NCBI GenBank assembly: GCA_964621305.1
Contig: CAZUOM010000001.1
Coordinates: 165,448 to 229,447 of the forward strand
From: an uncultured Gammaproteobacteria bacterium
GTDB lineage: Bacteria > Patescibacteriota > Microgenomatia > UBA10105 > UBA927
Direction of reading: 5' to 3'
DNA length: 64,000 bases
In this document: piece by piece, positions 1,835-47,507 of the stretch
How positions within the stretch are numbered: the first letter of the stretch is position 1
How the letters are laid out: every line of letters begins with the position of its first letter
The notes under the pieces: model-generated
Database searches by the model: none
What the model was told of the DNA's origin: nothing
The model's input: the letters and a program-made list of their open reading frames with translations, nothing else
Position numbers and translations under genes: made by a program

Positions 1835-2068
1835 CTAGAAGACGGCTTTGCGCAGGTCGAAGCGGACGCGCTTGATACACGAGGTGCAGGCACGCACGCG
1901 CTTGAGGACCCCGTCAAACGGCAGGCTCACCCAGTGAAGGTTGGGCTTAAATCTGCGGATGGTCGTCTGTGCCCGCTTTTTCCACTGCCCGCCGGCAACT
2001 CCAGTGTGATGGGTGTGAGAGCGACCCATGTGACTTTTTTTATTGCATATTTCGCATCTTGCAGCCAT
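1835..2068 (-). CDS. rpmB: 50S ribosomal protein L28
   Basis: 77 aa, MAARCEICNKKSHMGRSHTHH...RRFKPNLHWVSLP. Matches the L28 signature (C-x-I-C-x-K, SH, RrF-PNL). Confidence 0.8.
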   Translation of the reverse strand: MAARCEICNKKSHMGRSHTHHTGVAGGQWKKRAQTTIRRFKPNLHWVSLPFDGVLKRVRACTSCIKRVRFDLRKAVF

Positions 2069-2079
2069 AATAAAAAGAA

Positions 2080-2155
2080 GCTTAGCGTGCTTAGCAAGAC
2101 CAGTAGCTTAGAAGTTTCTAAGCCACCAATCTACTAAGCATCTAAGCTACTAAGC
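2080..2155. repeat. hexamer inverted-repeat cluster: 3x GCTTAG followed by 4x CTAAGC (empty IVS-like stem site)
   Basis: GCTTAG at 2080, 2089 and 2106. CTAAGC at 2118, 2134, 2142 and 2150. The central GCTTAGAAGtTTCTAAGC is a near-perfect palindrome. The same hexamer arrays flank the four-helix-bundle gene at 10381-10823. Confidence 0.6.
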
Positions 2156-2194
2156 TTCTAAACTTCTCCTCAATCACGTATACTATACCACAGC

Positions 2195-2800
2195 ATGACT
2201 GATCTTGTCTATTGGTTCGGATCGCTCATAATAGCCATCACTATCCACGAATTTGCCCATGCGGTGGCGGCGGACCGGCTTGGAGACCCCACCCCCAGAC
2301 TCCAGGGGCGGATCACCCTTAACCCCCTCTCGCACCTGGACCCAGTGGGCACGATCATGCTCCTTCTGGTTCACTTCGGTTGGGGCAAACCCGTCCAGTT
2401 CGACCCGTTTAACCTGCGCCACCCCAGGCGGGACGCAGCCATCATCTCCCTTGCGGGGCCGGCGGCAAATTTAGTATTAGCGACGATCATCTCAATTCTT
2501 CTTCACTTTATAAACTTTATAAACATTACAAACTTTCTAACTACGCTGGTAGTTTTAAACGTCGTCCTTGCTGTTTTTAATCTCCTACCCCTTCATCCGC
2601 TCGACGGATTTAAAATCGTCGGCGGCATCTTACCGACAGAATATGCCAAAAGCTGGTACGAGCTGGAGCGCTACGGCATACTTTTTCTCCTGTTTCTCCT
2701 CTTCCCAATCTTTGGAAGTACTGCACCAATTACAAAAATCGTCACACCGGTTATCAGTCTCGTACTGGGTATCCTTCTACCCCGCGCACCAGTTATCTAA
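2195..2800 (+). CDS. site-2 protease family (peptidase M50) integral membrane metalloprotease
   Basis: HEFAHA (HExxH) in the first TM segment, downstream LLPLHPLDGFKIVGG (LDG motif), and a multi-pass hydrophobic profile. Confidence 0.7.
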   Translation: MTDLVYWFGSLIIAITIHEFAHAVAADRLGDPTPRLQGRITLNPLSHLDPVGTIMLLLVHFGWGKPVQFDPFNLRHPRRDAAIISLAGPAANLVLATIISILLHFINFINITNFLTTLVVLNVVLAVFNLLPLHPLDGFKIVGGILPTEYAKSWYELERYGILFLLFLLFPIFGSTAPITKIVTPVISLVLGILLPRAPVI

Positions 2801-3114: not shown

Positions 3115-3348
3115 GCCGCCTTGGCTCAGTGGTAGAGCGAGTGTTTTGTCCCAGCACTATCTTGCCCCGCCGAGCGGGGCGTAGAAGTGCGGGATCCCAT
3201 ACTTTTAAGCTGGCGTAGCTCAATGGCAGAGCAACTGTTTTGTAAACAGTAGGTTGGGAGTTCGATCCTCCCCGTCAGCTCAAAATAACCGCCAGCAAAA
3301 AGTACTGGGATAAACACTAGGTCGTCGGTCCGATCCCGACAGGCGGCT
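3115..3348 (+). tRNA. split or interrupted tRNA-Thr(UGU)-like gene: 5-prime half 3115-3149, 3-prime half 3312-3348, with a 162-nt insert in the anticodon loop that contains a complete tRNA-Thr
   Basis: 5-prime half: GCCGCCT-TG-GCTC-AGTGGTA-GAGC-G-AGTGT-TTTGT. 3-prime half: AA-ACACT-AGGTC-GTCGG-TCCGATC-CCGAC-AGGCGGC-T. Acceptor, anticodon and T stems all pair perfectly, and the rejoined loop is TTTGTAA. The insert 3150-3311 ends in 9-bp inverted repeats CCCAGCACT / AGTACTGGG. Confidence 0.45.
3209..3280 (+). tRNA. tRNA-Thr (anticodon UGU)
   Basis: Manual cloverleaf: acceptor GCTGGCG/CGTCAGC (one GU), D arm GCTC-AATGGCA-GAGC, anticodon arm ACTGT-TTTGTAA-ACAGT, T arm GGGAG-TTCGATC-CTCCC. No encoded CCA. 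Confidence 0.85.
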
Positions 3349-3641
3349 CAAAACGAAAGGCTTCTGAAGACGTTTTCCACTTCTATCATGGTTTTTTTGT
3401 TTCCCTTGTAAAACATCCGCGCACCGATCTGATACCTAGTGACAAATCCCACTTTTATGAGCTCTTTAAGGTGATGGGCAAGGAGGCTTTGCGAACATGG
3501 CATATGGATAGCAAGCTCTTTGAGCCTCATGTCACTTTGTGACAAAAGGTGCAAAATAGCAATCCGATGCGGGTGAGCTATGGCATGCAGGATGCCAGCC
3601 TCTTTGGCAGATCGCACAATTAGTTTCTTGCCGGCAAGCAT
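3348..3641 (-). CDS. ArsR/SmtB-family HTH transcriptional regulator
   Basis: 97 aa; winged-helix region HPHRIAILHLLSQSDMRLKELAIHMPCSQSLLAHHLKELIKVGFV typical of ArsR. Confidence 0.65.
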   Translation of the reverse strand: MLAGKKLIVRSAKEAGILHAIAHPHRIAILHLLSQSDMRLKELAIHMPCSQSLLAHHLKELIKVGFVTRYQIGARMFYKGNKKTMIEVENVFRSLSF

Positions 3642-3667
3642 AGGAACCTATTATAATTGATCCCAAT

Positions 3668-3752
3668 GCCGAGGTGGCAGAGCAGTCAAATGCACCAGTC
3701 TGTAAAACTGGTGGCCGAAAGGCCTACCTAGGTGCGAATCCTAGCCTCGGCA
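3668..3752 (+). tRNA. tRNA-Tyr (anticodon GUA), class II with a long variable arm
   Basis: Acceptor GCCGAGG/CCTCGGC, anticodon arm CCAGT-CTGTAAA-ACTGG, variable hairpin GGCC-GAAA-GGCC, T arm CTAGG-TGCGAAT-CCTAG. A TATAAT box sits at 3652-3657 upstream. Confidence 0.85.
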
Positions 3753-4440: not shown

Positions 4441-4565
4441 CCGTGAATCTAATATCTCTTTTTTCTACCGCTGTATTTGCCGCTGAAGTCGTTCTTTCAC
4501 CCGTACCCGATGAATTGGCCGGTTATATATATCCAGGCTTTCATCAGCCGAGTGTTAGCTTTGGT

Positions 4566-5315
4566 ATGCTTGCCCAACCGACATTGCCTGAAGTTGTCGA
4601 AATCACCACCGAAACCATACCCTCACTAGCCCCTGTCGTATCTCCTAGAAAGGCGAGAAAAGATGCCTTCACTATAGCCGTCATCGGCGACTCAATGGTC
4701 GATACCCTTGGCCCGGACATAGGGGGACTGCCGAAAAAACTTCAACAAACATACCCGGGAGTATTTTTTGACGTACGAAACTACGGCGTGGGAGCCACCA
4801 ATATCGACTACGGCATCAGCCGCCTCACTAACGACTACGAATACTTGGGCGTCGGTAAACCTTCTGTAGTCAGCCAAAATCCGGATATCGTAGTTATCGA
4901 ATCATTCGGCTACAACCCCTACCCATTCGACGAAGGCGCCCTTGATAAACATTGGCTCGCGCTCTCACAAATGGTTGATATCATAAAAGCAAATCTCCCC
5001 GAGGCAAAAATAGTGATAGCCGCAACGATTGCTCCCAATTGGGACGTATTTGGTGACGGCGTTCTTGGTTGGGATTCTAGCGGCAAGAGGAGAAAAGTCG
5101 AAGAAATCAAGAGATACATCGAAAATACAGTCGGCTTTGCCAAAAGCCAGAATCTGCCACTGGCCGACGTCTATCACCCAAGCCTAGACGACACCGGCAA
5201 CGGGAAGCTCGCCTATATAAATCCCGGCGACCACATCCACTACTCAGATGCCGGACGGGAGCTATTTTCAAAAAAGGTATTTGAGGCACTCGAGAGACAC
5301 AAGCTACTAGAGTGA
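4566..5315 (+). CDS. SGNH/GDSL-family hydrolase (lipase or esterase-like); start uncertain
   Basis: Block I motif FTIAVIGDSMVDTLG. The ORF-track start 4359 overlaps the tRNA-Thr(GGU) gene, so the first ATG after the tRNA (4566) or a nearby non-ATG start is more plausible. Confidence 0.6.
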   Translation: MLAQPTLPEVVEITTETIPSLAPVVSPRKARKDAFTIAVIGDSMVDTLGPDIGGLPKKLQQTYPGVFFDVRNYGVGATNIDYGISRLTNDYEYLGVGKPSVVSQNPDIVVIESFGYNPYPFDEGALDKHWLALSQMVDIIKANLPEAKIVIAATIAPNWDVFGDGVLGWDSSGKRRKVEEIKRYIENTVGFAKSQNLPLADVYHPSLDDTGNGKLAYINPGDHIHYSDAGRELFSKKVFEALERHKLLE

Positions 5316-6368: not shown

Positions 6369-6443
6369 AAAGCGTGAAATAACAGAACAAATACCGTATA
6401 CTTACACTTCTTGGCTCAATAATATATCTTAAAAAAAAGGCCT

Positions 6444-8498
6444 ATGTCAAATATAGAATCTCCTTCGCAACCATATGAGCTTGATGCCGTATCAGCTGTT
6501 TTTGACCGTTTTGTTGAGCAGCTCAATCTGTCTGATATTAAAACTCGGCCAGACCGACCGCAAGTACTCTCCCGCTGTTTTCGAATATTTTCCGACGCAC
6601 TCTCCCGAGGCATATCGCCCTTATCTATAAAGCTATCCACTAACGGCCTGATAATACCTACTATAGCAAAAAACAACGAAACGTGCCAGATACGCTACAG
6701 AGGGGATCCGCAGACAATATTACAGTGGGAACTTATTCCAGCCAAAAGAAATCCATCTACATCGGAAATATTTTTTTTTCAGCGTAGGATGGAGGAGGCA
6801 CAAGAGCCGATAAACGGTGAAAAGTGGTTTGCCCAGGTTCCAGACCTTATACAGGCAGCATTAGTCTTAGGTCAATCGATACAAATGGCCCAGGTCCAAA
6901 AATCAAATGAGTCACGTCGACGAATAGAACATGCATTGGCAACAGCTGGTTTTCTGGTTCGTCATGTGCCAGAAGTCAAGGAGCGCTTTGATATGTTTTC
7001 CAAAGATTTCCAAACATTTAAAAAGGATATTATCGGTTCCCAACTTGCTCTGTGCGAACGGCACCTCGATGATGCCTCATACGCACCAAGGCTTTTGGCC
7101 CTACAAAATGATGCCGAAGCACTAGTACGACTTCGCACACATCTATTTCGTAATGGAAAAAGAGCCATCGGCGACCATGATCGACCAAAATATGAGCATG
7201 CGCTGGCTATAGAATATATCATCAAACCAAAATCACTGGCGGACCCTAGCCATTTGATGTATCCAGAAACATCGATAGAAAAAATCATGACTGTCTACAA
7301 TTTTTTTATCTCGCTACGAAAACATATTGAGGACAGAGGCTACGCTTTCGGCCAGCTACGACATCAGCCTGATATTGAGGCACCCGTTGGCGCTGCATTT
7401 GAAGCTATCGGCATTCCCAGACACATCGGCCTTAGCTATTGCGGCAGCATCTGTGGGCAGCTCATCGACGACGTTCTTACTGATCCAAAGATTTTTCCAG
7501 ACCCCACTGCGACCATTGATAAAACACTACTTTCACAAAACGATTCGTTGCGTATCGATCTTAGTAGACAATTTTTACTCGAAAGAGCATCGCCGGCAAG
7601 TAAACCAGTAGTTGAGTCACACATGGCAAACGAGATGGCTATAAAGATAGAGTATCTGAATCTCGCACAGGCTAAACGTCTACCAAACACATCCCTTCTG
7701 GAAGCCGATCCGACCACCCGCAAGCAGATCTTTAGCCGGTTATTTGTTCAAGAAAATTCGGTTGAGGCAAAGAAGACATCGCTGCGGCTTGTTCGTTGGC
7801 TATCGCTTGTGTATAACTCACGAACACATTCTTTTACTCGCTCAGAAAAGACACAAAAAGAGTTGTCCCCAAGAGAAAAAGCCATCGCCCACGACTTTCT
7901 CTCTACGTGTATTAGCCTAACCAGATGGAAAAATACTTACGTCAAATCACTCTTTGACCAGCTCATTATAGAGTCGCAGCTGGCGGCATTCGTCGACGAA
8001 GTCTTTGGCAAAGGCACGCGCCGAGACCAGGCGGAAAGACAGTTTAAAAGTGAAATCATAAACGTCGTAACTGATGCAGAACTGGATGGCCTCATGACGG
8101 TCCACCGCAAGCTAAGCCCCAACCCAAAAAGTATAGAGGGTTACAATAAGATTGCCACCATGGCGGTGGCACTAGCGCTTTGGAATCTTTCAGATACGCT
8201 AGAGGCCGATCGCGAAACCATCATCGACACCCAGGCCATGGAAGGGGTTACGCTCTCTGCAGGCCAGATCGTATCTGCTCAACTGATAGCCCATGGCAGA
8301 AGTATGGAAAAAACTAAACAAAGCAATTTAGCAAGCGCAGTAGCAGATCTACTCTACCGGGGATCAATCGAAAAACGCATCCCTCCCATCGTCAAAGAGT
8401 TTGTTGGAGAAGCACTCAATAGCCTCTACCATCGCGACCGGTCAGCGTACGGTCAGCTTCATGAAAGTCTCGAAAAAACCATCAGGTCATTTTCGTAA
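6444..8498 (+). CDS. hypothetical protein (684 aa), predicted soluble and alpha-rich
   Basis: Long uninterrupted ORF. AAAAAAAAGG lies 6-15 nt upstream of the ATG. No family recognised. Confidence 0.5.
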   Translation: MSNIESPSQPYELDAVSAVFDRFVEQLNLSDIKTRPDRPQVLSRCFRIFSDALSRGISPLSIKLSTNGLIIPTIAKNNETCQIRYRGDPQTILQWELIPAKRNPSTSEIFFFQRRMEEAQEPINGEKWFAQVPDLIQAALVLGQSIQMAQVQKSNESRRRIEHALATAGFLVRHVPEVKERFDMFSKDFQTFKKDIIGSQLALCERHLDDASYAPRLLALQNDAEALVRLRTHLFRNGKRAIGDHDRPKYEHALAIEYIIKPKSLADPSHLMYPETSIEKIMTVYNFFISLRKHIEDRGYAFGQLRHQPDIEAPVGAAFEAIGIPRHIGLSYCGSICGQLIDDVLTDPKIFPDPTATIDKTLLSQNDSLRIDLSRQFLLERASPASKPVVESHMANEMAIKIEYLNLAQAKRLPNTSLLEADPTTRKQIFSRLFVQENSVEAKKTSLRLVRWLSLVYNSRTHSFTRSEKTQKELSPREKAIAHDFLSTCISLTRWKNTYVKSLFDQLIIESQLAAFVDEVFGKGTRRDQAERQFKSEIINVVTDAELDGLMTVHRKLSPNPKSIEGYNKIATMAVALALWNLSDTLEADRETIIDTQAMEGVTLSAGQIVSAQLIAHGRSMEKTKQSNLASAVADLLYRGSIEKRIPPIVKEFVGEALNSLYHRDRSAYGQLHESLEKTIRSFS

Positions 8499-9982: not shown

Positions 9983-10206
9983 GGTATCGGAATCAAGCCC
10001 AATGGCGACCTCACCTTTCTCTATGCGTAAAGGGTCGATAGGACCACCATGGCCATAAGCACGACGAAAAAGCGCCCATCGCAGCTGATAGGCTTTGATC
10101 GAAGAACTAATCGCCGAATCACCGGCTTCTGTTAGAGAAGGAATTTCGCCCAGAGGGTGAATTATACCACTTGGCGAAAGCAGCGTAAATCTATTATAAT
10201 ACCTCC

Positions 10207-10380
10207 ATGGCTACCAAATCACAACGCGAACTCTTTGCCCTCGTTTGTTCTGTCTGCAAACGTCAGAATTATGTGAAGAAGAAAAACAAGCTGAATACGC
10301 CAGATAAACTCCTCCTGAAAAAGTATTGCGCGGGATGCAAAAAACACACGGAACACCGAGAATCCAACAAGCTGGATTAA
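10207..10380 (+). CDS. rpmG: 50S ribosomal protein L33 (zinc-ribbon type), 57 aa, absent from the ORF track
   Basis: MATKSQRELFALVCSVCKRQNYVKKKNKLNTPDKLLLKKYCAGCKKHTEHRESNKLD. This is the C-x2-C ... C-x2-C layout with KNKxNTPxKLxLKKYC and KHTxHRE, characteristic of L33. Confidence 0.8.
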   Translation: MATKSQRELFALVCSVCKRQNYVKKKNKLNTPDKLLLKKYCAGCKKHTEHRESNKLD

Positions 10381-10823
10381 AAGAGGCTTAGAAGCTTAGT
10401 TATTTAGAAGCTTAGAGCTTATGACTTCTTTCAATTTCGAAGGGCTTACGGTCTATCAACGCTCCTTGGTATTCTCACAAAGAATTTTTGAAATATCCCG
10501 GGATTGGCCGAAAGAATACCTCTTTGGGTTAACGGATCAATTACGGCGTGCGTCATTATCCATTCCTTTAAATATTGCTGAGGGAAGCAGTAGGACAAAA
10601 AAAGATTTTAGACATTTTTTGATTATTTCTCGAGGGTCTTGTTTTGAATCCATTCCTCTGATAAAACTGGCACATTCTTTAAAACTCCTTACTTCAATCG
10701 AGGAACAAACTTTGTATAATGAACTGAACGAGATAGCTCGTATGCTTAGTGGTCTTCGGTCATCTCTCGGGAGTATCTAACCAAGCTACTAAGCATCTCT
10801 AAGCCACTAAGCATCTTTTAACC
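10381..10823 (+). mobile_element. IVS-like cassette: four-helix-bundle gene bracketed by 3x GCTTAG (5-prime) and 3x CTAAGC (3-prime) inverted hexamer arrays
   Basis: GCTTAG at 10386, 10394 and 10411, immediately after the rpmG stop. CTAAGC at 10789, 10799 and 10807, immediately after the ORF stop. The arrays are mutually complementary and could form a long-range stem enclosing the ORF. An empty version of the same repeat sits at 2080-2155. Confidence 0.5.
10421..10780 (+). CDS. four-helix bundle protein (23S rRNA intervening-sequence protein family)
   Basis: 119 aa, YQRSLVFSQRIFEISRDWPKEYLFGLTDQLRRASLSIPLNIAEGSSRTKKDFRHFLIISRGSCFES. Matches the conserved core of IVS-encoded four-helix-bundle proteins (GLTSQLRRAAVSIPSNIAEG...F..FL.IARGS..E). 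Confidence 0.75.
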   Translation: MTSFNFEGLTVYQRSLVFSQRIFEISRDWPKEYLFGLTDQLRRASLSIPLNIAEGSSRTKKDFRHFLIISRGSCFESIPLIKLAHSLKLLTSIEEQTLYNELNEIARMLSGLRSSLGSI

Positions 10824-11339
10824 ATGCATCGCAATACCTACCTGCTCCTGATACTGCTTACGATCTTTGCCGCAATCGTGGCCGGTGTGAATATTGCCAA
10901 ACCGCAATCGGGTGAACCAAACCAAATAAATCTCCCAGAGACCGCCCAGCCCACACCGACTCCCCGACCGACCGTGTATAACTTAGGCAGCTGCGGCATA
11001 TCACTGATCGTGCCACCAAACTATACTACCATCGACGGTCCGGAAAGTACCGTGGTCTTAACCGGACCATCTGCCGGCGACACCATCATCGTCACCTGCC
11101 AAAAAAATATCCCGCGTCCCCCACTGCCAGCGGCGAAAATCGAACGGCTCGTCTTTGACATTGCCGAGCCGCCCGGTGCAAGTATTACCGCCACTCTCTA
11201 CCACGACGTTTCTTCCCGTGACGCGACGCCGGTCGACAAGTTAATATTTAGAAACCCCAAAAACGGCCTGGATATCTTCGTCTCCGGCACTGGGGAAGGC
11301 TTCCAATCCCTCATCAGAAACCTGAGCATCCTCCAATAA
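10824..11339 (+). CDS. hypothetical membrane-anchored secreted protein
   Basis: 171 aa; N-terminal signal or anchor LLLILLTIFAAIVAGVNIA, then a Pro/Thr-rich linker. Confidence 0.45.
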   Translation: MHRNTYLLLILLTIFAAIVAGVNIAKPQSGEPNQINLPETAQPTPTPRPTVYNLGSCGISLIVPPNYTTIDGPESTVVLTGPSAGDTIIVTCQKNIPRPPLPAAKIERLVFDIAEPPGASITATLYHDVSSRDATPVDKLIFRNPKNGLDIFVSGTGEGFQSLIRNLSILQ

Positions 11340-39032: not shown

Positions 39033-39764
39033 ATGCACTGCCCCAACGGCGACAACCTACTCATCGACAAAGCCCCAAAACACGACGGGTTAACTCTCCA
39101 TTACCTACTATGTCTCAGTTGTGGCGGCATCTGGGTGTCAAGTTTTGACGCAAACTACCTCAAATATGTCGATATTCCAGCTTCGCAAGGAGAGTCCTTG
39201 CGGACGCAAGGACTCTCCTTAATACTTTTATGTCCGCAATGCCGGAAGGGTCTTTTGAGAGCTACCGGCGACAATGTCCCGCCGGATGTTGTTGCCTATC
39301 GCTGCCCTGACGGTCACGGCTACTTTTTCCCGGCAGGAGAGCTCCTGAAGTTTAAGGAAGCGCAGGAGGTAAAAATTGAATATCACCAAAAATGGCATAT
39401 ACCGCTTGCCTCCGTTGCCAGCGCTCTCCTCATGACGATGACGGGCCTGATCATCTCCGCAGGCCTCATCATCGGCGTCATCGAGGGGGAGCGACAACAG
39501 ACGATCACCTCGCAAGCAGAAGAGATCATCAAATCTCAGAAAGCCTACGTGGACCAAACCAACCGCGCCGTCACCATCATCGCTCTGACGGCCGAACCGA
39601 TAGCCCTCACCGTCGTCGTTGACGGGAAAGAACATCCCATGCTAGCTCCCGATGCCCGCTCCCACGTCGTCCGCATTACAAACATCGCCCCCGGCGACCA
39701 CTCCTACTTCTTCCGCTTCCATAAAGAAAGGGAAAGGATAGAATCTCCAATATTCTCATTCTGA
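39033..39764 (+). CDS. zinc-ribbon-containing membrane protein (243 aa)
   Basis: CPNG...CLSCGG, CPQCRKG and CPDGHG Cys pairs, with a central TM helix LASVASALLMTMTGLIISAGLIIGVI. Confidence 0.5.
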   Translation: MHCPNGDNLLIDKAPKHDGLTLHYLLCLSCGGIWVSSFDANYLKYVDIPASQGESLRTQGLSLILLCPQCRKGLLRATGDNVPPDVVAYRCPDGHGYFFPAGELLKFKEAQEVKIEYHQKWHIPLASVASALLMTMTGLIISAGLIIGVIEGERQQTITSQAEEIIKSQKAYVDQTNRAVTIIALTAEPIALTVVVDGKEHPMLAPDARSHVVRITNIAPGDHSYFFRFHKERERIESPIFSF

Positions 39765-47049: not shown

Positions 47050-47088
47050 GTGGGAAAAACATTGTTGACCTGCTGATTATCTGCTACC

Positions 47089-47394
47089 TGAGTTTCTCAA
47101 ATTCTCCATTTCCCCATTAACTCGAGGCTAAATTTCCAAAATTCAGGGCACTAAGGGGTATCATTGTGGGATGACGTATATTCGCCGGGTAAAAACTGCC
47201 AGATATGCAGTTGCCATTCAAGTGGTCCGGAAGTAGCAGGGGGAAATTGTCCAATTCCGCTTTACTGGGCGAGGTGCTGCGGGAACAGTACCGCCTCATG
47301 AACGGCCGGGAGTATCCAGCAGAGGCAGACATTCCTCCGGTTATCCACACGCTATTACAAAAACTTCGCTTAGGGCACTAATTTGAGAAACTCA
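47089..47394. repeat. about 300-bp segment bounded by 15-bp inverted repeats (TGAGTTTCTCAAATT / AATTTGAGAAACTCA) plus the direct repeat GGGCACTAA; possible MITE-like element
   Basis: IR-L 47089-47103, IR-R 47380-47394. GGGCACTAA at 47146 and 47373. Contains only short ORFs (e.g. a 58-aa plus-strand ORF 47205-47381). Lies between the convergent pncB and purM genes. Confidence 0.3.
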
Positions 47395-47507
47395 AGTTCC
47401 AGAGCGCTTGTCTGGTTGCCTGCCACTTAGTCTGCCGCAGCAGAAGGTCCACTGTTTTTCAATGGACGCAGATGTAAACTAGGTTGCTCATACTTTAAGA
47501 AAAACCG

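Follow-up and report, generated by a model that had tools for sequence, protein, structure and literature searches.

A candidate ORF-less, IVS-like stem-loop in the predicted mRNA leader of rpmB and its relation to a four-helix-bundle cassette beside rpmG

Introduction

Why does an inverted array of short tandem repeats, holding no gene, stand between the ribosomal protein gene rpmB and a divergent site-2 protease gene, when arrays of the same units bracket a small gene next to rpmG 8 kb away? A sequence-only reading of this 64-kb stretch of DNA (called the window here) took the first array (site A) for an empty copy of the second (site B), i.e., for a cassette site either excised or never filled. 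It also saw in the proximity of both arrays to ribosomal protein genes a hint of insertion-site preference or shared regulation. Reports of IVS elements with their S23p/four-helix-bundle ORFs in 23S rRNA go back to the 1990s, and “four helix bundle protein” is now among the commonest unexplained bacterial annotations. The two sites were compared with those of Gottesmanbacteria-like genomes (L204, L206, L208, L211, L212, and L213, with L124 and L214 added for the rpmG site) and with a family sample of 74 homologous PF05635 genes from metagenomes, set against 200 shifted controls.

Results

Site A carries GCTTAG on the + strand at 2080, 2089, and 2106, followed by CTAAGC at 2118, 2134, 2142, and 2150 (Table 1), so that the three and four units of the sequence-only reading are confirmed. 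The number expected between 2080 and 2155 is ∼0.03, and the units recur with a period of 8. The center of the site, from 2106 to 2123 (GCTTAGAAGTTTCTAAGC), had been described as a near-perfect palindrome and is a perfect one (8+2+8), and the apex comprises 2 to 4 nt. As also claimed, no credible ORF lies in the interior, the two overlapping ORFs being shadows of rpmB. The genes named as neighbors are borne out by family matches at both sites, with rpmG adjoining the second array as rpmB does the first.

The GCTTAG hexamer itself is not enriched across the 64-kb window (22 matches against 24.75 expected from shuffles), and 13 of the 22 matches fall in two clusters, the only GCTTAG arrays that the window contains. 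Seven hexamers in 76 nt have a Poisson probability of 1.6e-15 per position and ∼1e-10 over the whole window, and these and the shuffle statistics rule out a chance origin of the site A array. TRF places period-8 arrays at 2112-2167, 10382-10421, and 10789-10816. A candidate third copy at 47368/47716 has a cassette-like spacing of ∼350 nt, yet it consists of single chance hexamers and has no PF05635 ORF.

Table 1. Positions of the features of sites A and B and of their neighboring genes in the 64-kb window
Feature	Position	Strand	Basis or remark
rpmB, ribosomal protein L28, 77 aa	1835..2068	-	PF00830, E 2.3e-09
Complete array hairpin, site A	2069..2172	-	Insert relative to four related genomes; predicted rpmB 5' UTR on minus strand
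Arm with 3 GCTTAG units, site A	2080..2111	+	Hexamer positions
Apical perfect palindrome GCTTAGAA-GT-TTCTAAGC, site A	2106..2123	.	Matches ORF position in site B cassette
Arm with 4 CTAAGC units, period-8 array, site A	2118..2155	+	Hexamer positions, TRF
Predicted rpmB promoter	2182..2211	-	-35 TAGACA, 18-nt spacer, TG-extended -10 TATAGT; 10/12 consensus matches; consensus match alone
M50/site-2-protease-family gene, divergent from rpmB	2195..2800	+	PF02163, E 7.9e-14
rpmG, ribosomal protein L33	10207..10380	+	PF00471, E 1.8e-17
Site B left arm, 3 GCTTAG units and degenerate units	10381..10420	+	Hexamers, inverted repeat, TRF
Four-helix-bundle gene (PF05635/TIGR02436), in loop between arms	10421..10780	+	PF05635 E 2.8e-31; TIGR02436 E 9.4e-31; PDB 2GSC E 1.7e-13
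Site B right arm, 3 CTAAGC units then ATCTTTTAA	10781..10823	+	ATCTTTTAA pairs with TTAAAAGAG of left flank
Downstream gene, 171 aa, no family hit	10824..11339	+	Directly abuts right arm

Site B is a filled cassette, in which the arms (inverted repeat I3, 23 nt, 87%) enclose a PF05635 ORF of 119 aa. This four-helix-bundle (4HB) gene is under purifying selection, with a pN of 0.25 to 0.34 against a pS of 0.76 to 0.88. The rpmG gene upstream has a leaderless-type arrangement, with a TATAAT box ending 6 nt before its ATG. PADLOC found no defense-system match, and an assignment of the 4HB protein to the accessory protein bAvd of diversity-generating retroelements (DGR) was rejected, the scores being 19.9 bits for PF22296 (cutoff, 40) and 21.2 for NF033474 (cutoff, 80).

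Aligned with the joined arms of the cassette at 10381-10823, site A (2069-2172) scores 73, against 18.6 ± 3.5 for shuffles. The alignment crosses the ORF junction: GCTTAGAAACTT and CTAAGCTACT adjoin each other at site A, and their counterparts GCTTAGAGCTT and CCAAGCTACT stand on either side of the ORF at site B. By its sequence, site A is an ORF-less copy of the site B arms, and the alignment looks as though the loop had lost its ORF. The similarity of sites A and B is higher within a genome (53 and 42, for the window and L208) than between these genomes (29 to 30). The notion of an empty copy thus stands as regards the homologous arms; excised and never-filled states are indistinguishable, because no relative carries a 4HB gene inside site A.

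Terminal inverted repeats can form a long enclosing stem at both sites. At site A, the RNA of the minus strand, on which rpmB is encoded, folds at −51.1 kcal/mol and that of the plus strand at −32.2 kcal/mol, a difference of 19 kcal/mol that arises through G-U pairs; z scores for the 136-nt region are −7.45 (minus strand) and −4.09 (plus strand). The arms of site B, joined by a tetraloop, give −43.7 kcal/mol (+) and −44.7 kcal/mol (−), without strand asymmetry. Transcription of rpmB is predicted to start near 2175, where the hairpin has its base, and site A, located between promoter and start codon, is accordingly predicted to be essentially the whole rpmB 5' UTR. Along the rpmB strand, TTCTTTTT comes after the hairpin. 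The minimum-free-energy structure pairs TTCTTTTTATT, behind the hairpin on the minus strand, with a 5' GAGGAGAAG, and the hairpin stem is AU/GU-rich. A terminator scan left the site A hairpin uncalled. An Rfam search at gathering thresholds gave no match for site A and none to a ribosomal-protein leader; membership in a known RNA family was rejected, the sub-threshold matches being solely to eukaryotic miRNA precursor hairpins. The window contains no rRNA, and neither site lies inside a 23S rRNA helix.

Comparison with the relatives revealed polymorphism at both sites. Orthologues of rpmB in L204 to L213 are 70 to 85% identical to that of the window (L204, 85%; L206, 80%). Four of these genomes (L204, L206, L212, and L213) have no hairpin, only ∼20 nt separating the rpmB CAT from TATACTATACCA. 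L208 and L211 have inserts of ∼100 nt with weak folds (z scores of −1.9 and −1.1), which look like decayed versions of the element; the three site A inserts are so divergent that a consensus-structure alignment yields 4 pairs. The −10 core of the promoter (TATACTATA) is invariant in seven genomes, and the array is present in one to three of those. No variation in unit copy number was seen, the window, L001, and L002 being identical.

L214, L208, and L124 share with the window a cassette at the rpmG site, which L213 lacks; there, 6 nt separate the rpmG stop from the next ATG, that of an orthologue of the gene at 10824..11339. The 4HB cassette is therefore polymorphic beside rpmG, although no relative bears out the same for site A with a 4HB gene inside. 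Neither site shows a target-site duplication when filled and empty alleles are compared. GCTTAG units are kept in both the window and L214 despite saturation of synonymous sites (pS, 0.80); the L214 contig ends short of site A. L208 has two cassettes, with CGAAGCT-type and TTGACAA-type units and proteins 35% identical.

In L124, the cassette is preceded by an additional, diverged copy of the final ∼16 rpmG codons.

Inverted tandem arrays of 7- to 8-nt units are a general flank of the PF05635 gene family. Tandem periodicity of 6 to 9 nt was found in a flank of 49 of the 74 PF05635 genes but in only 7 of the 200 controls, and inverted repeated 6-mers in the flanks of 32/74 genes against 2/200 controls. 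ORF-less hairpins of the same kind but made of different units are found across several phyla, e.g., in Flavobacterium, Thermoanaerobaculia, and Acidobacteriales. The duplex energy of the flanks does not discriminate the cassettes from shifted controls (P = 0.17), because GC-rich controls pair well too. Folding across the 74 cassettes favored the sense strand in 35 and the antisense strand in 39. The G-U asymmetry toward the sense strand is thus confined to site A and was rejected as a general signature; because neither the 74 cassettes nor site B shows it, RNA-level selection in general is not demonstrated.

A scan of the collection for GCTTAG arrays gave at least 120 matches, mostly one-orientation (GCTTAGNN)n microsatellites in unrelated phyla; among the matches listed, only L112 and L025 have a 4HB gene at E < 1e-3. 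Two candidate neighbor preferences were rejected: a tRNA lies within 300 nt at 3 of 80 loci (L134, L139, and L142), and the neighbors of the metagenomic homologues are diverse operon genes with diverse Pfam matches rather than ribosomal protein genes. The suspected insertion-site preference holds only loosely within the clade, in which cassettes occur 3' of rpmG and, in L208 and L211, also 3' of rpmB, but not among the metagenomic homologues.

Discussion

We favor, with moderate confidence, the view that site A represents an IVS-like stem-loop without an ORF, borne on an mRNA and probably a substrate of RNase III. This view builds on the observed anatomy of the array, its homology to the cassette arms, the insertion polymorphism, the folding potential, and the generality of array flanks in the PF05635 family. 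It suggests the following. (i) The element would belong to a family of stem-loops whose two arms are inverted arrays of short tandem units, in this genome of 8 nt with a GCTTAG core. The filled form carries a PF05635/TIGR02436 four-helix-bundle gene in the loop, the same architecture as that of the ORF-bearing IVS of 23S rRNA. (ii) Site A would be transcribed, from the putative start, as almost the entire 5' UTR of the rpmB mRNA, which in relatives is leaderless, and the folded element would bring the 5' end of this mRNA and the AUG together. (iii) The long imperfect double-stranded RNA would most likely be a target of RNase III, and the rpmB mRNA, once cut, would retain a short leader. (iv) Site A would then be a dispensable passenger, gained and lost and probably neutral, and a paralogue of the arms around the 4HB gene next to rpmG, 8 kb distant. 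A search confined to the 64-kb window and related loci found no RNase III signature motif.

A model in which any stem will do does not explain why the stems consist of tandem 7- to 8-nt units, why GCTTAG is retained in the window and in L214, or why sites A and B resemble each other more within a genome. These features could instead point to recognition by protein. The arrays, (GCUUAGNN)n and (GCTTAGNN)n, may be sequence-specific sites for the pentameric 4HB protein encoded at 10421-10780, bound in a TRAP-like manner by several subunits on evenly spaced repeats. Site A would then be either a target in trans, so that a single regulator controls rpmB and the rpmG-4HB operon, or a non-autonomous element that depends on the 4HB protein for its maintenance. 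We regard such recognition as rather unlikely, though several lines of evidence argue for it. First, the units are common to sites A and B of a given genome (CTAAGC in the window and CGAAGC(T) type in L208), in keeping with the higher within-genome scores. Second, the GCTTAG units and the 4HB gene are both conserved, the former despite synonymous saturation, and the two L208 cassettes differ in their units while their proteins are just 35% identical. Third, the PDB relative 2GSC is described as a homopentameric toroid (PMC4990558). Fourth, the window and L208 have both hairpin and cassette, and L213 has neither (n = 3). On the other hand, units vary widely among loci with proteins 40 to 70% identical, and several solo hairpins with different units occur within 8 kb of one genome (L004 and L059), which would therefore require many specificities. 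The within-genome likeness comes from two genomes and could equally reflect gene conversion or common descent.

An extension of this proposal has a similarly small chance of being right but wide reach. The 4HB proteins (TIGR02436/PF05635) and inverted tandem 7- to 8-nt arrays might form one widespread two-part system, in which the pentamer recognizes, maintains, or propagates arrays of its own units. ORF-less hairpins such as that at 2069-2172 would be non-autonomous members that depend in trans on the site B cassette, 8 kb distant. If true, this would unite rRNA IVS, the heptamer/octamer long simple sequence repeats, and the large 4HB family, and an essential ribosomal-protein mRNA would be under the influence of the system. 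The link between arrays and PF05635 flanks, if upheld, would itself provide a handle on the role of the 4HB proteins and on why bacteria keep heptamer/octamer arrays.

Site A might, alternatively, be a cis-regulatory leader of rpmB, acting as an attenuator or terminator, as a 5' stabilizing hairpin, or as an autoregulatory site for L28, with the version at rpmG providing the common regulation suspected in the sequence-only reading. Its stability (−51 kcal/mol), the succession of hairpin, TTCTTTTTATT, and ATG on the rpmB strand, and a strand asymmetry favoring rpmB-sense RNA are what such a leader would predict, and at site B ATCTTTTAA follows the right arm before the next ATG. A terminator or attenuator role for the hairpin with TTCTTTTT is possible. 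However, L204, L206, L212, and L213 lack the element and L208 and L211 have decayed versions, which makes a conserved regulator of an essential ribosomal-protein gene unlikely, and shared regulation of rpmB and rpmG is unlikely for the same reason, relatives lacking the element. Moreover, the U-run and the 5' GAGGAGAAG pair with each other in the minimum-free-energy structure, neither the terminator scan nor the Rfam leader models recognized the site, and at rpmG the array lies downstream of the gene rather than in its leader. We consider a cis-regulatory leader improbable.

Still less probable is a cassette site acting at the level of DNA, an attC-like or MITE-like recombination substrate from which the 4HB cassette has been excised, or into which it can be inserted, by a recombinase or transposase. 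The presence/absence polymorphism at both sites, the exact coincidence of the hairpin apex with the position of the ORF, and folding that is strand symmetric as a general rule, as befits a DNA palindrome, would all suit such a site, and the diverged rpmG-end copy in L124 resembles a footprint of acquisition with flanking DNA. Yet no target-site duplication distinguishes filled from empty alleles at either site, and no integrase, attI, or cassette array was seen, the eight neighboring ORFs having no recombinase or transposase domain. These results speak against an integron-type version of the cassette site envisaged in the sequence-only reading. No near-identical cassettes were found in other contexts (the best non-self homologue is 74% identical), and unit sequences vary among cassettes, unlike attC or TIR motifs. 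Finally, orthologous cassettes persist at the rpmG site across a divergence that saturates synonymous sites, which indicates long vertical residence.

A transcription factor operator, e.g., for the ArsR/HTH_5 gene at 3348-3641, is the least credible explanation: a palindromic repeat cluster in the divergent rpmB/M50 region and a syntenic HTH_5 gene nearby in all relatives would fit it, but the relatives retain rpmB, M50, and the HTH_5 gene without the array, which is absent even where the promoter core is invariant, seven hexamers over 76 bp with the same units bracketing an unrelated ORF are atypical, and the array falls within the predicted transcribed leader, on the downstream side of the putative rpmB −10 box.

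Site A is not a conserved rpmB regulator, an operator, or an integron site, and its one fitting classification is as a derivative or relative, without an ORF, of an IVS-type element. If the favored view of a passenger stem-loop in mRNA is right, rpmB, leaderless in relatives, has gained a 5' UTR of ∼100 nt predicted to be pure hairpin, which would amount to a natural experiment in insert tolerance.

Comparison with known systems

The protein of site B shares its fold superfamily with the bAvd proteins of DGR, to which it has weak matches (PF22296, E 0.0011; NF033474, E 2.7e-4). Unlike in DGR, neither a reverse transcriptase nor a template/variable repeat pair lies beside the 4HB gene. Integron cassettes likewise combine a small promoterless ORF with an imperfect inverted repeat and are polymorphic in presence and absence, but attC lies on one side of the ORF and has an R/L-box architecture read by the integron integrase, whereas the arrays here bracket the ORF.

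Correia/nemis elements of Neisseria are palindromic inserts of ∼100 to 150 bp near genes that are cotranscribed, cut as hairpins by RNase III, and polymorphic among strains. Their terminal inverted repeats are conserved, a TA target duplication is present, and near-identical copies number in the hundreds, whereas sites A and B have no target duplication and variable units and are the only two copies in the 64 kb.

Long repeats of 7- to 8-nt units are known from several genomes. Tandem heptamers occur in intergenic regions, often just upstream of start codons (PMC4679880), and Xanthomonas has ∼70 convergent inverted pairs of long simple-sequence repeats (PMC4692102). In the examples compared (GGGAATC pairs of Xanthomonas, cyanobacterial STRR, and TAACTGA of Beggiatoaceae), one unit dominates the genome, whereas here the units differ by locus. 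The papers on these repeats draw no link to PF05635 genes, and in the searchable literature, the single Coxiella case apart, no general link of the PF05635/TIGR02436 family to flanking repeat arrays was found.

The best experimental precedent for a possible mode of action of site A is the heptamer-SSR hairpin of Haemophilus influenzae hmw1A/hmw2A, a long hairpin with a tandem 7-nt array transcribed in the 5' UTR, which is processed by RNase III with altered expression (PMC12721329). In that hairpin one arm is repetitive and the other G-rich, the repeat count leads to phase variation of the adhesin, and there is no PF05635 link.

Among IVS of 23S rRNA, the ORF-less ones (Salmonella helix 25/45 type) are short, sporadic stem-loops removed by RNase III (PMC4990558); unlike site A, they lie in rRNA helices and are not built of tandem units. 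The closest likeness is to the ORF-bearing IVS of Leptospira and Coxiella burnetii. In these, the loop contains a PF05635 ORF, as it does at site B, a long stem of the kind that site A matches arises from terminal inverted repeats, and tandem heptamers beside the ORF vary in copy number among strains. In Coxiella, the S23p ORF occupies the loop of the IVS, RNase III cuts the terminal stem of 28 bp, and the heptamers differ in copy number (PMC4990558). Unlike 23S IVS, site A would stand in an mRNA 5' leader and site B stands between protein-coding genes, the stems are almost wholly made of tandem 8-nt units, and site A has no ORF; moreover, the ORF here is under purifying selection, whereas that of Coxiella is described as decaying. 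The locus shows the IVS architecture outside rRNA, in filled and ORF-less form, with empty and filled alleles at orthologous sites.

Structure of the rpmB and rpmG loci

The best-supported reading of site A, the array hairpin between rpmB (L28) and an M50 gene, is that of an ORF-less element resembling a 23S rRNA intervening sequence (IVS), an insert in the leader of rpmB that is dispensable and paralogous to the arms of the four-helix-bundle (4HB) cassette at site B, downstream of rpmG (L33). All positions of the array reported in the sequence-only reading (three GCTTAG units, four CTAAGC units and a palindromic center) were located, and its gene calls around the arrays (L28, M50/site-2 protease, L33, and the 4HB ORF) agreed with gene and domain calls. 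The center of site A (2106-2123) is a perfect palindrome, GCTTAGAA-GT-TTCTAAGC. The hexamer is not in excess in the entire window (22 copies versus 24.75 expected), but 13 of the 22 copies fall in two clusters, site A and 10386-10415 plus 10789-10812, and the Poisson probability of seven copies per 76 nt is ∼1.6e-15 per position. The period found by Tandem Repeats Finder is 8, so each unit is an octamer built around GCTTAG.

Coordinates of arrays, genes, and predicted promoter elements (window positions unless a locus is named)
Feature	Position	Strand	Remark
L28 gene (rpmB)	1835-2068	-	
Site A	2069-2172		ORF-less array hairpin
GCTTAG units of site A	2080, 2089, 2106	+	
CTAAGC units of site A	2118, 2134, 2142, 2150	+	complement of GCTTAG
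Period-8 arrays	2112-2167; 10382-10421; 10789-10816		Tandem Repeats Finder
Predicted rpmB promoter, TG-extended -10 TATAGT	2187-2182	-	18-nt spacer; whole promoter 10/12 consensus matches
Predicted sigma-70-type rpmB promoter, -35 TAGACA	2211-2206	-	consensus match
M50 (site-2 protease family) gene	2195-2800	+	
L33 gene (rpmG)	10207-10380	+	
4HB ORF of site B	10421-10780		119 aa
171-aa ORF	10824-11339	+	
L004 (Flavobacterium) hairpins	422-478; 1210-1310; 4513-4589		ORF-less inverted arrays within 8 kb
L059 (Thermoanaerobaculia) hairpins	3626-3706; 4590-4671; 6395-6463		ORF-less inverted arrays within 8 kb

The site B arrays exactly enclose the 4HB ORF, with 40 nt between the rpmG stop and the ORF start and 43 nt between the ORF stop and the next ATG. 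Its product matches PF05635 (“23S rRNA-intervening sequence protein,” E 2.8e-31) and TIGR02436 (“four helix bundle protein,” E 9.4e-31) and is a relative of PDB 2GSC. The inverted repeat runs on into TTAAAAGAG / ATCTTTTAA, and the stem extends to both ends of the ORF, as far as its start codon (AGCTT-ATG) and its stop codon (TAA-CCAAGCT). A weaker inverted repeat of 22 nt (73%) links the rpmG coding end (10323-10344) with the beginning of the 171-aa ORF (10816-10837); this pairing, which may be due to chance, would lengthen the stem into both neighboring genes.

Alignment of the minus strand of site A with the joined site B arms scored 73, compared to 18.6 ± 3.5 for shuffles, and spans the ORF junction (GCTTAGAAACTT|CTAAGCTACT at site A and GCTTAGAGCTT[ORF]CCAAGCTACT at site B). 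Site A is therefore, judged by structure and sequence, a cassette minus its ORF, and the initial idea of an “empty copy” is supported both by this homology and by the polymorphism among relatives. The plus strand scored 70, so that orientation is not fixed by sequence alone.

Other repeats in the window include a 9-nt tandem repeat, ACTTTATAA, within the M50 coding sequence (2505-2540; 4 copies, 81% matches), which encodes an in-frame three-residue repeat; an inverted repeat of 24 nt (47080-47103 / 47380-47403; TCTGCTACCTGAGTTTCTCAAATT / AATTTGAGAAACTCAAGTTCCAGA; 88% complementary, 276 nt between arms) in the gap of two convergent ORFs; and a perfect 16+16 palindrome with a 2-nt center (39187-39220; AAGGAGAGTCCTTGCG / CGCAAGGACTCTCCTT). 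Directly downstream of the studied region lies a giant ORF of 26 kb (12153-38399, minus strand; 8748 aa, TTG start).

Site A as the predicted rpmB leader

The sense strand of rpmB is the minus strand, which is also the better-folding strand of site A. The folding energy of the 136-nt region was −58.5 kcal/mol (z −7.45) for the minus strand and −32.2 kcal/mol (z −4.09) for the plus strand, with corresponding values of −51.1 and −32.2 for the core (2069-2172), an advantage that results from G-U pairs in the spacers. Transcription from the predicted promoter would start near 2175, three bases ahead of the hairpin base, and two or three bases remain between the end of the hairpin and the rpmB ATG. 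The 5′ untranslated region (UTR) of rpmB would then consist of the hairpin alone.

Sites A and B in related genomes

Orthologous loci were found via homologues of the M50 protein, which carry the annotation Candidatus Gottesmanbacteria / Patescibacteria; 12.8 kb of the window is identical to GCA_005239695.1 contig SBBN01000007.1. The comparison with relatives that the sequence-only reading had proposed revealed presence/absence polymorphism at both sites. Site A is absent from loci L204/L205 (L28 85% identical), L206/L207 (80%), and L212 and L213 (76%), in which only ∼20 nt separates the start codons of rpmB and the M50 gene. This spacer includes an invariant core, TATACTATACCA, readable as overlapping divergent −10 boxes, and both genes look leaderless in these relatives. 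The core TATACTATA (2179-2187), invariant in seven genomes (the window, L204, L206, L208, L211, L212, and L213), reads as two such boxes, TATACT on the plus strand and TATAGT on the minus strand, and their distances of 7 to 10 nt to each start codon suggest leaderless mRNAs in the relatives. The TATAAT of rpmG (10195-10200), ending 6 nt ahead of the ATG, is likewise of the leaderless type.

The window has ∼100 additional nt between CCATAA and the invariant core. The insert of L208 is similar in length and has both ends in common (TGAAAAGAAGC... and ...CTTCTAAGCTTCTAAACTTCT), with degenerate units and a weak fold (z −1.9), and that of L211 has diverged further (z −1.1). No 4HB gene was found inside site A in any relative compared. 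A second 4HB cassette lies immediately 3′ of rpmB in L208 (5100-5560) and L211 (9233-9620); these cassettes are distantly related (35 to 37% identity), and their TTGACAA/TTGTCAA-type arrays are unlike the rpmG-linked units of the same clade.

At site B, the cassette separates rpmG from the 171-aa ORF orthologue in the window, L214 (= L112), L208, and L124; it is absent from L213, where only AGCTCT lies between the rpmG TGA and the next ATG. Comparison of filled and empty alleles showed no target-site duplication at site A or site B. In L124 (2200-2390), the last ∼16 rpmG codons occur twice, as KMCKKHTKHKESSKLD and, ∼90 nt on, as a diverged QMCRKHTKHKESGKLD. The second copy adjoins the left array and may be the footprint of a cassette acquired together with a piece of the donor's rpmG. 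The L112/L214 contig (CAZPNL010000021.1, titled “uncultured Gammaproteobacteria bacterium”) shows rpmG-4HB-ORF171 synteny of the Patescibacteria type, encodes a 4HB protein ∼70% identical to that of the window, and is probably mis-binned.

Non-synonymous differences among the four orthologous rpmG-linked 4HB genes (0.25 to 0.34 per site) are well below synonymous differences (0.76 to 0.88, saturated), which indicates that the gene is functional and under purifying selection. The architecture of their arrays is kept, but the units are not the same: the window and L214 have GCTTAG, L208 has CGAAGCT-like units, and L124 has TTAGTTAC. Alignment scores between sites A and B were 53 within the window and 42 within L208 but 29 and 30 across genomes, a hint, from two genomes only, that site A is closer to its own genome's site B and that the arrays change together. 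Gene conversion may account for such likeness, or a sequence-specific constraint that both sites share.

Repeat arrays in the 4HB gene family

Aligned 4HB homologues served as the query for a metagenome scan that yielded 80 loci, and in nearly all of them short tandem repeats, inverted between sides, were seen by eye on both sides of the 4HB gene. The period is most commonly 7 and sometimes 8 or 9, and units vary by locus (e.g., GGCGAGT, GTCGGGA, GGTTCAT, TATAGTT, and GAGAGTT). Flank periodicity (a 21-nt stretch with ≥80% self-match at period 6 to 9) was found for 49/74 4HB genes versus 7/200 control positions shifted by 0.8 to 1.2 kb, and a 6-mer repeated upstream with its complement repeated downstream for 32/74 versus 2/200. 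This family-wide association is a more interesting by-product than site A itself.

In 57 of 67 cases, the gene upstream has the same orientation as the 4HB gene; where the downstream gene shares that orientation, it follows after a median spacer of 39 to 46 nt. Neighbors are ordinary operon genes, e.g., sdhA/sdhB, pseudouridine synthases, panB, and nuoD, and of the 80 loci only L134, L139, and L142 have a tRNA gene within 300 nt. In L139 (2886-2950) and L142, tRNA-Ala and the cassette are followed by a conserved, non-coding-looking sequence (gtgctagacggggag.tagcggtgccctgta.cccggaatccgcta) that may be a small RNA gene. Not every cassette is two-armed: in a conserved group of loci in which a fumarate-reductase/succinate-dehydrogenase flavoprotein gene precedes the 4HB gene (L140, L147, L148, L151, L152, L153, L157, and L170), a GTTGAGA-type array occurs on the upstream side only, and in several (e.g., L147 and L153) the 4HB stop overlaps the next start codon.

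ORF-less hairpins built from other units are found in Flavobacterium, Thermoanaerobaculia, Acidobacteriales, Bacteroidales, and others. GCTTAG itself is not a universal signal, as the matches listed in a scan of the collection were mostly one-orientation microsatellites in unrelated phyla. In L117, a cyanobacterial (Leptolyngbyaceae) metagenome-assembled genome, eight perfect GCTTAGGA octamers with the same core hexamer run directly into an ATG, in one orientation and without an inverted partner.

Alternative explanations and known systems

The main rival is that the 4HB pentamer recognizes the array units by their sequence. This would explain the periodic stems, the within-genome match of sites A and B, and the fact that the window and L214 have both kept GCTTAG although synonymous divergence between them is saturated. 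Against it, units vary among related proteins, and several different solo hairpins lie side by side in single genomes, the three of L004 and the three of L059 each having a different unit sequence. A preference for insertion at ribosomal protein genes, suggested initially by the rpmB and rpmG locations, finds no general support given the ordinary operon neighbors, nor does shared regulation of the two genes. A conserved rpmB regulator or operator is argued against by the absence of site A from the closest relatives.

Under the reading of site A as a dispensable insert, the hairpin would be tolerated, and presumably neutral, in the rpmB leader because of its self-folding and its probable trimming by RNase III, by analogy with the Coxiella IVS and Haemophilus hmw. 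The Coxiella burnetii IVS carries an S23p ORF (of the PF05635 type) in its loop, a 28-bp terminal stem cut by RNase III, and two or three strain-variable GACAGAT heptamers before the ORF, and Leptospira IVSs resemble it (PMC4990558). In the Haemophilus influenzae hmw 5′ UTR, a transcribed heptamer array forms a long hairpin, the RNase III processing of which increases expression (PMC12721329). Other arrays include ∼70 convergent GGGAATC pairs in Xanthomonas (PMC4692102) and TAACTGA arrays just 5′ of start codons in Beggiatoaceae (PMC4679880). Our literature search, with most subscription journals outside its scope, found no paper that ties repeat arrays in the flanks to the PF05635/TIGR02436 family at large. 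Compared to the IVS of 23S rRNA, site A would be an element of the same type, but located in an mRNA rather than in rRNA.
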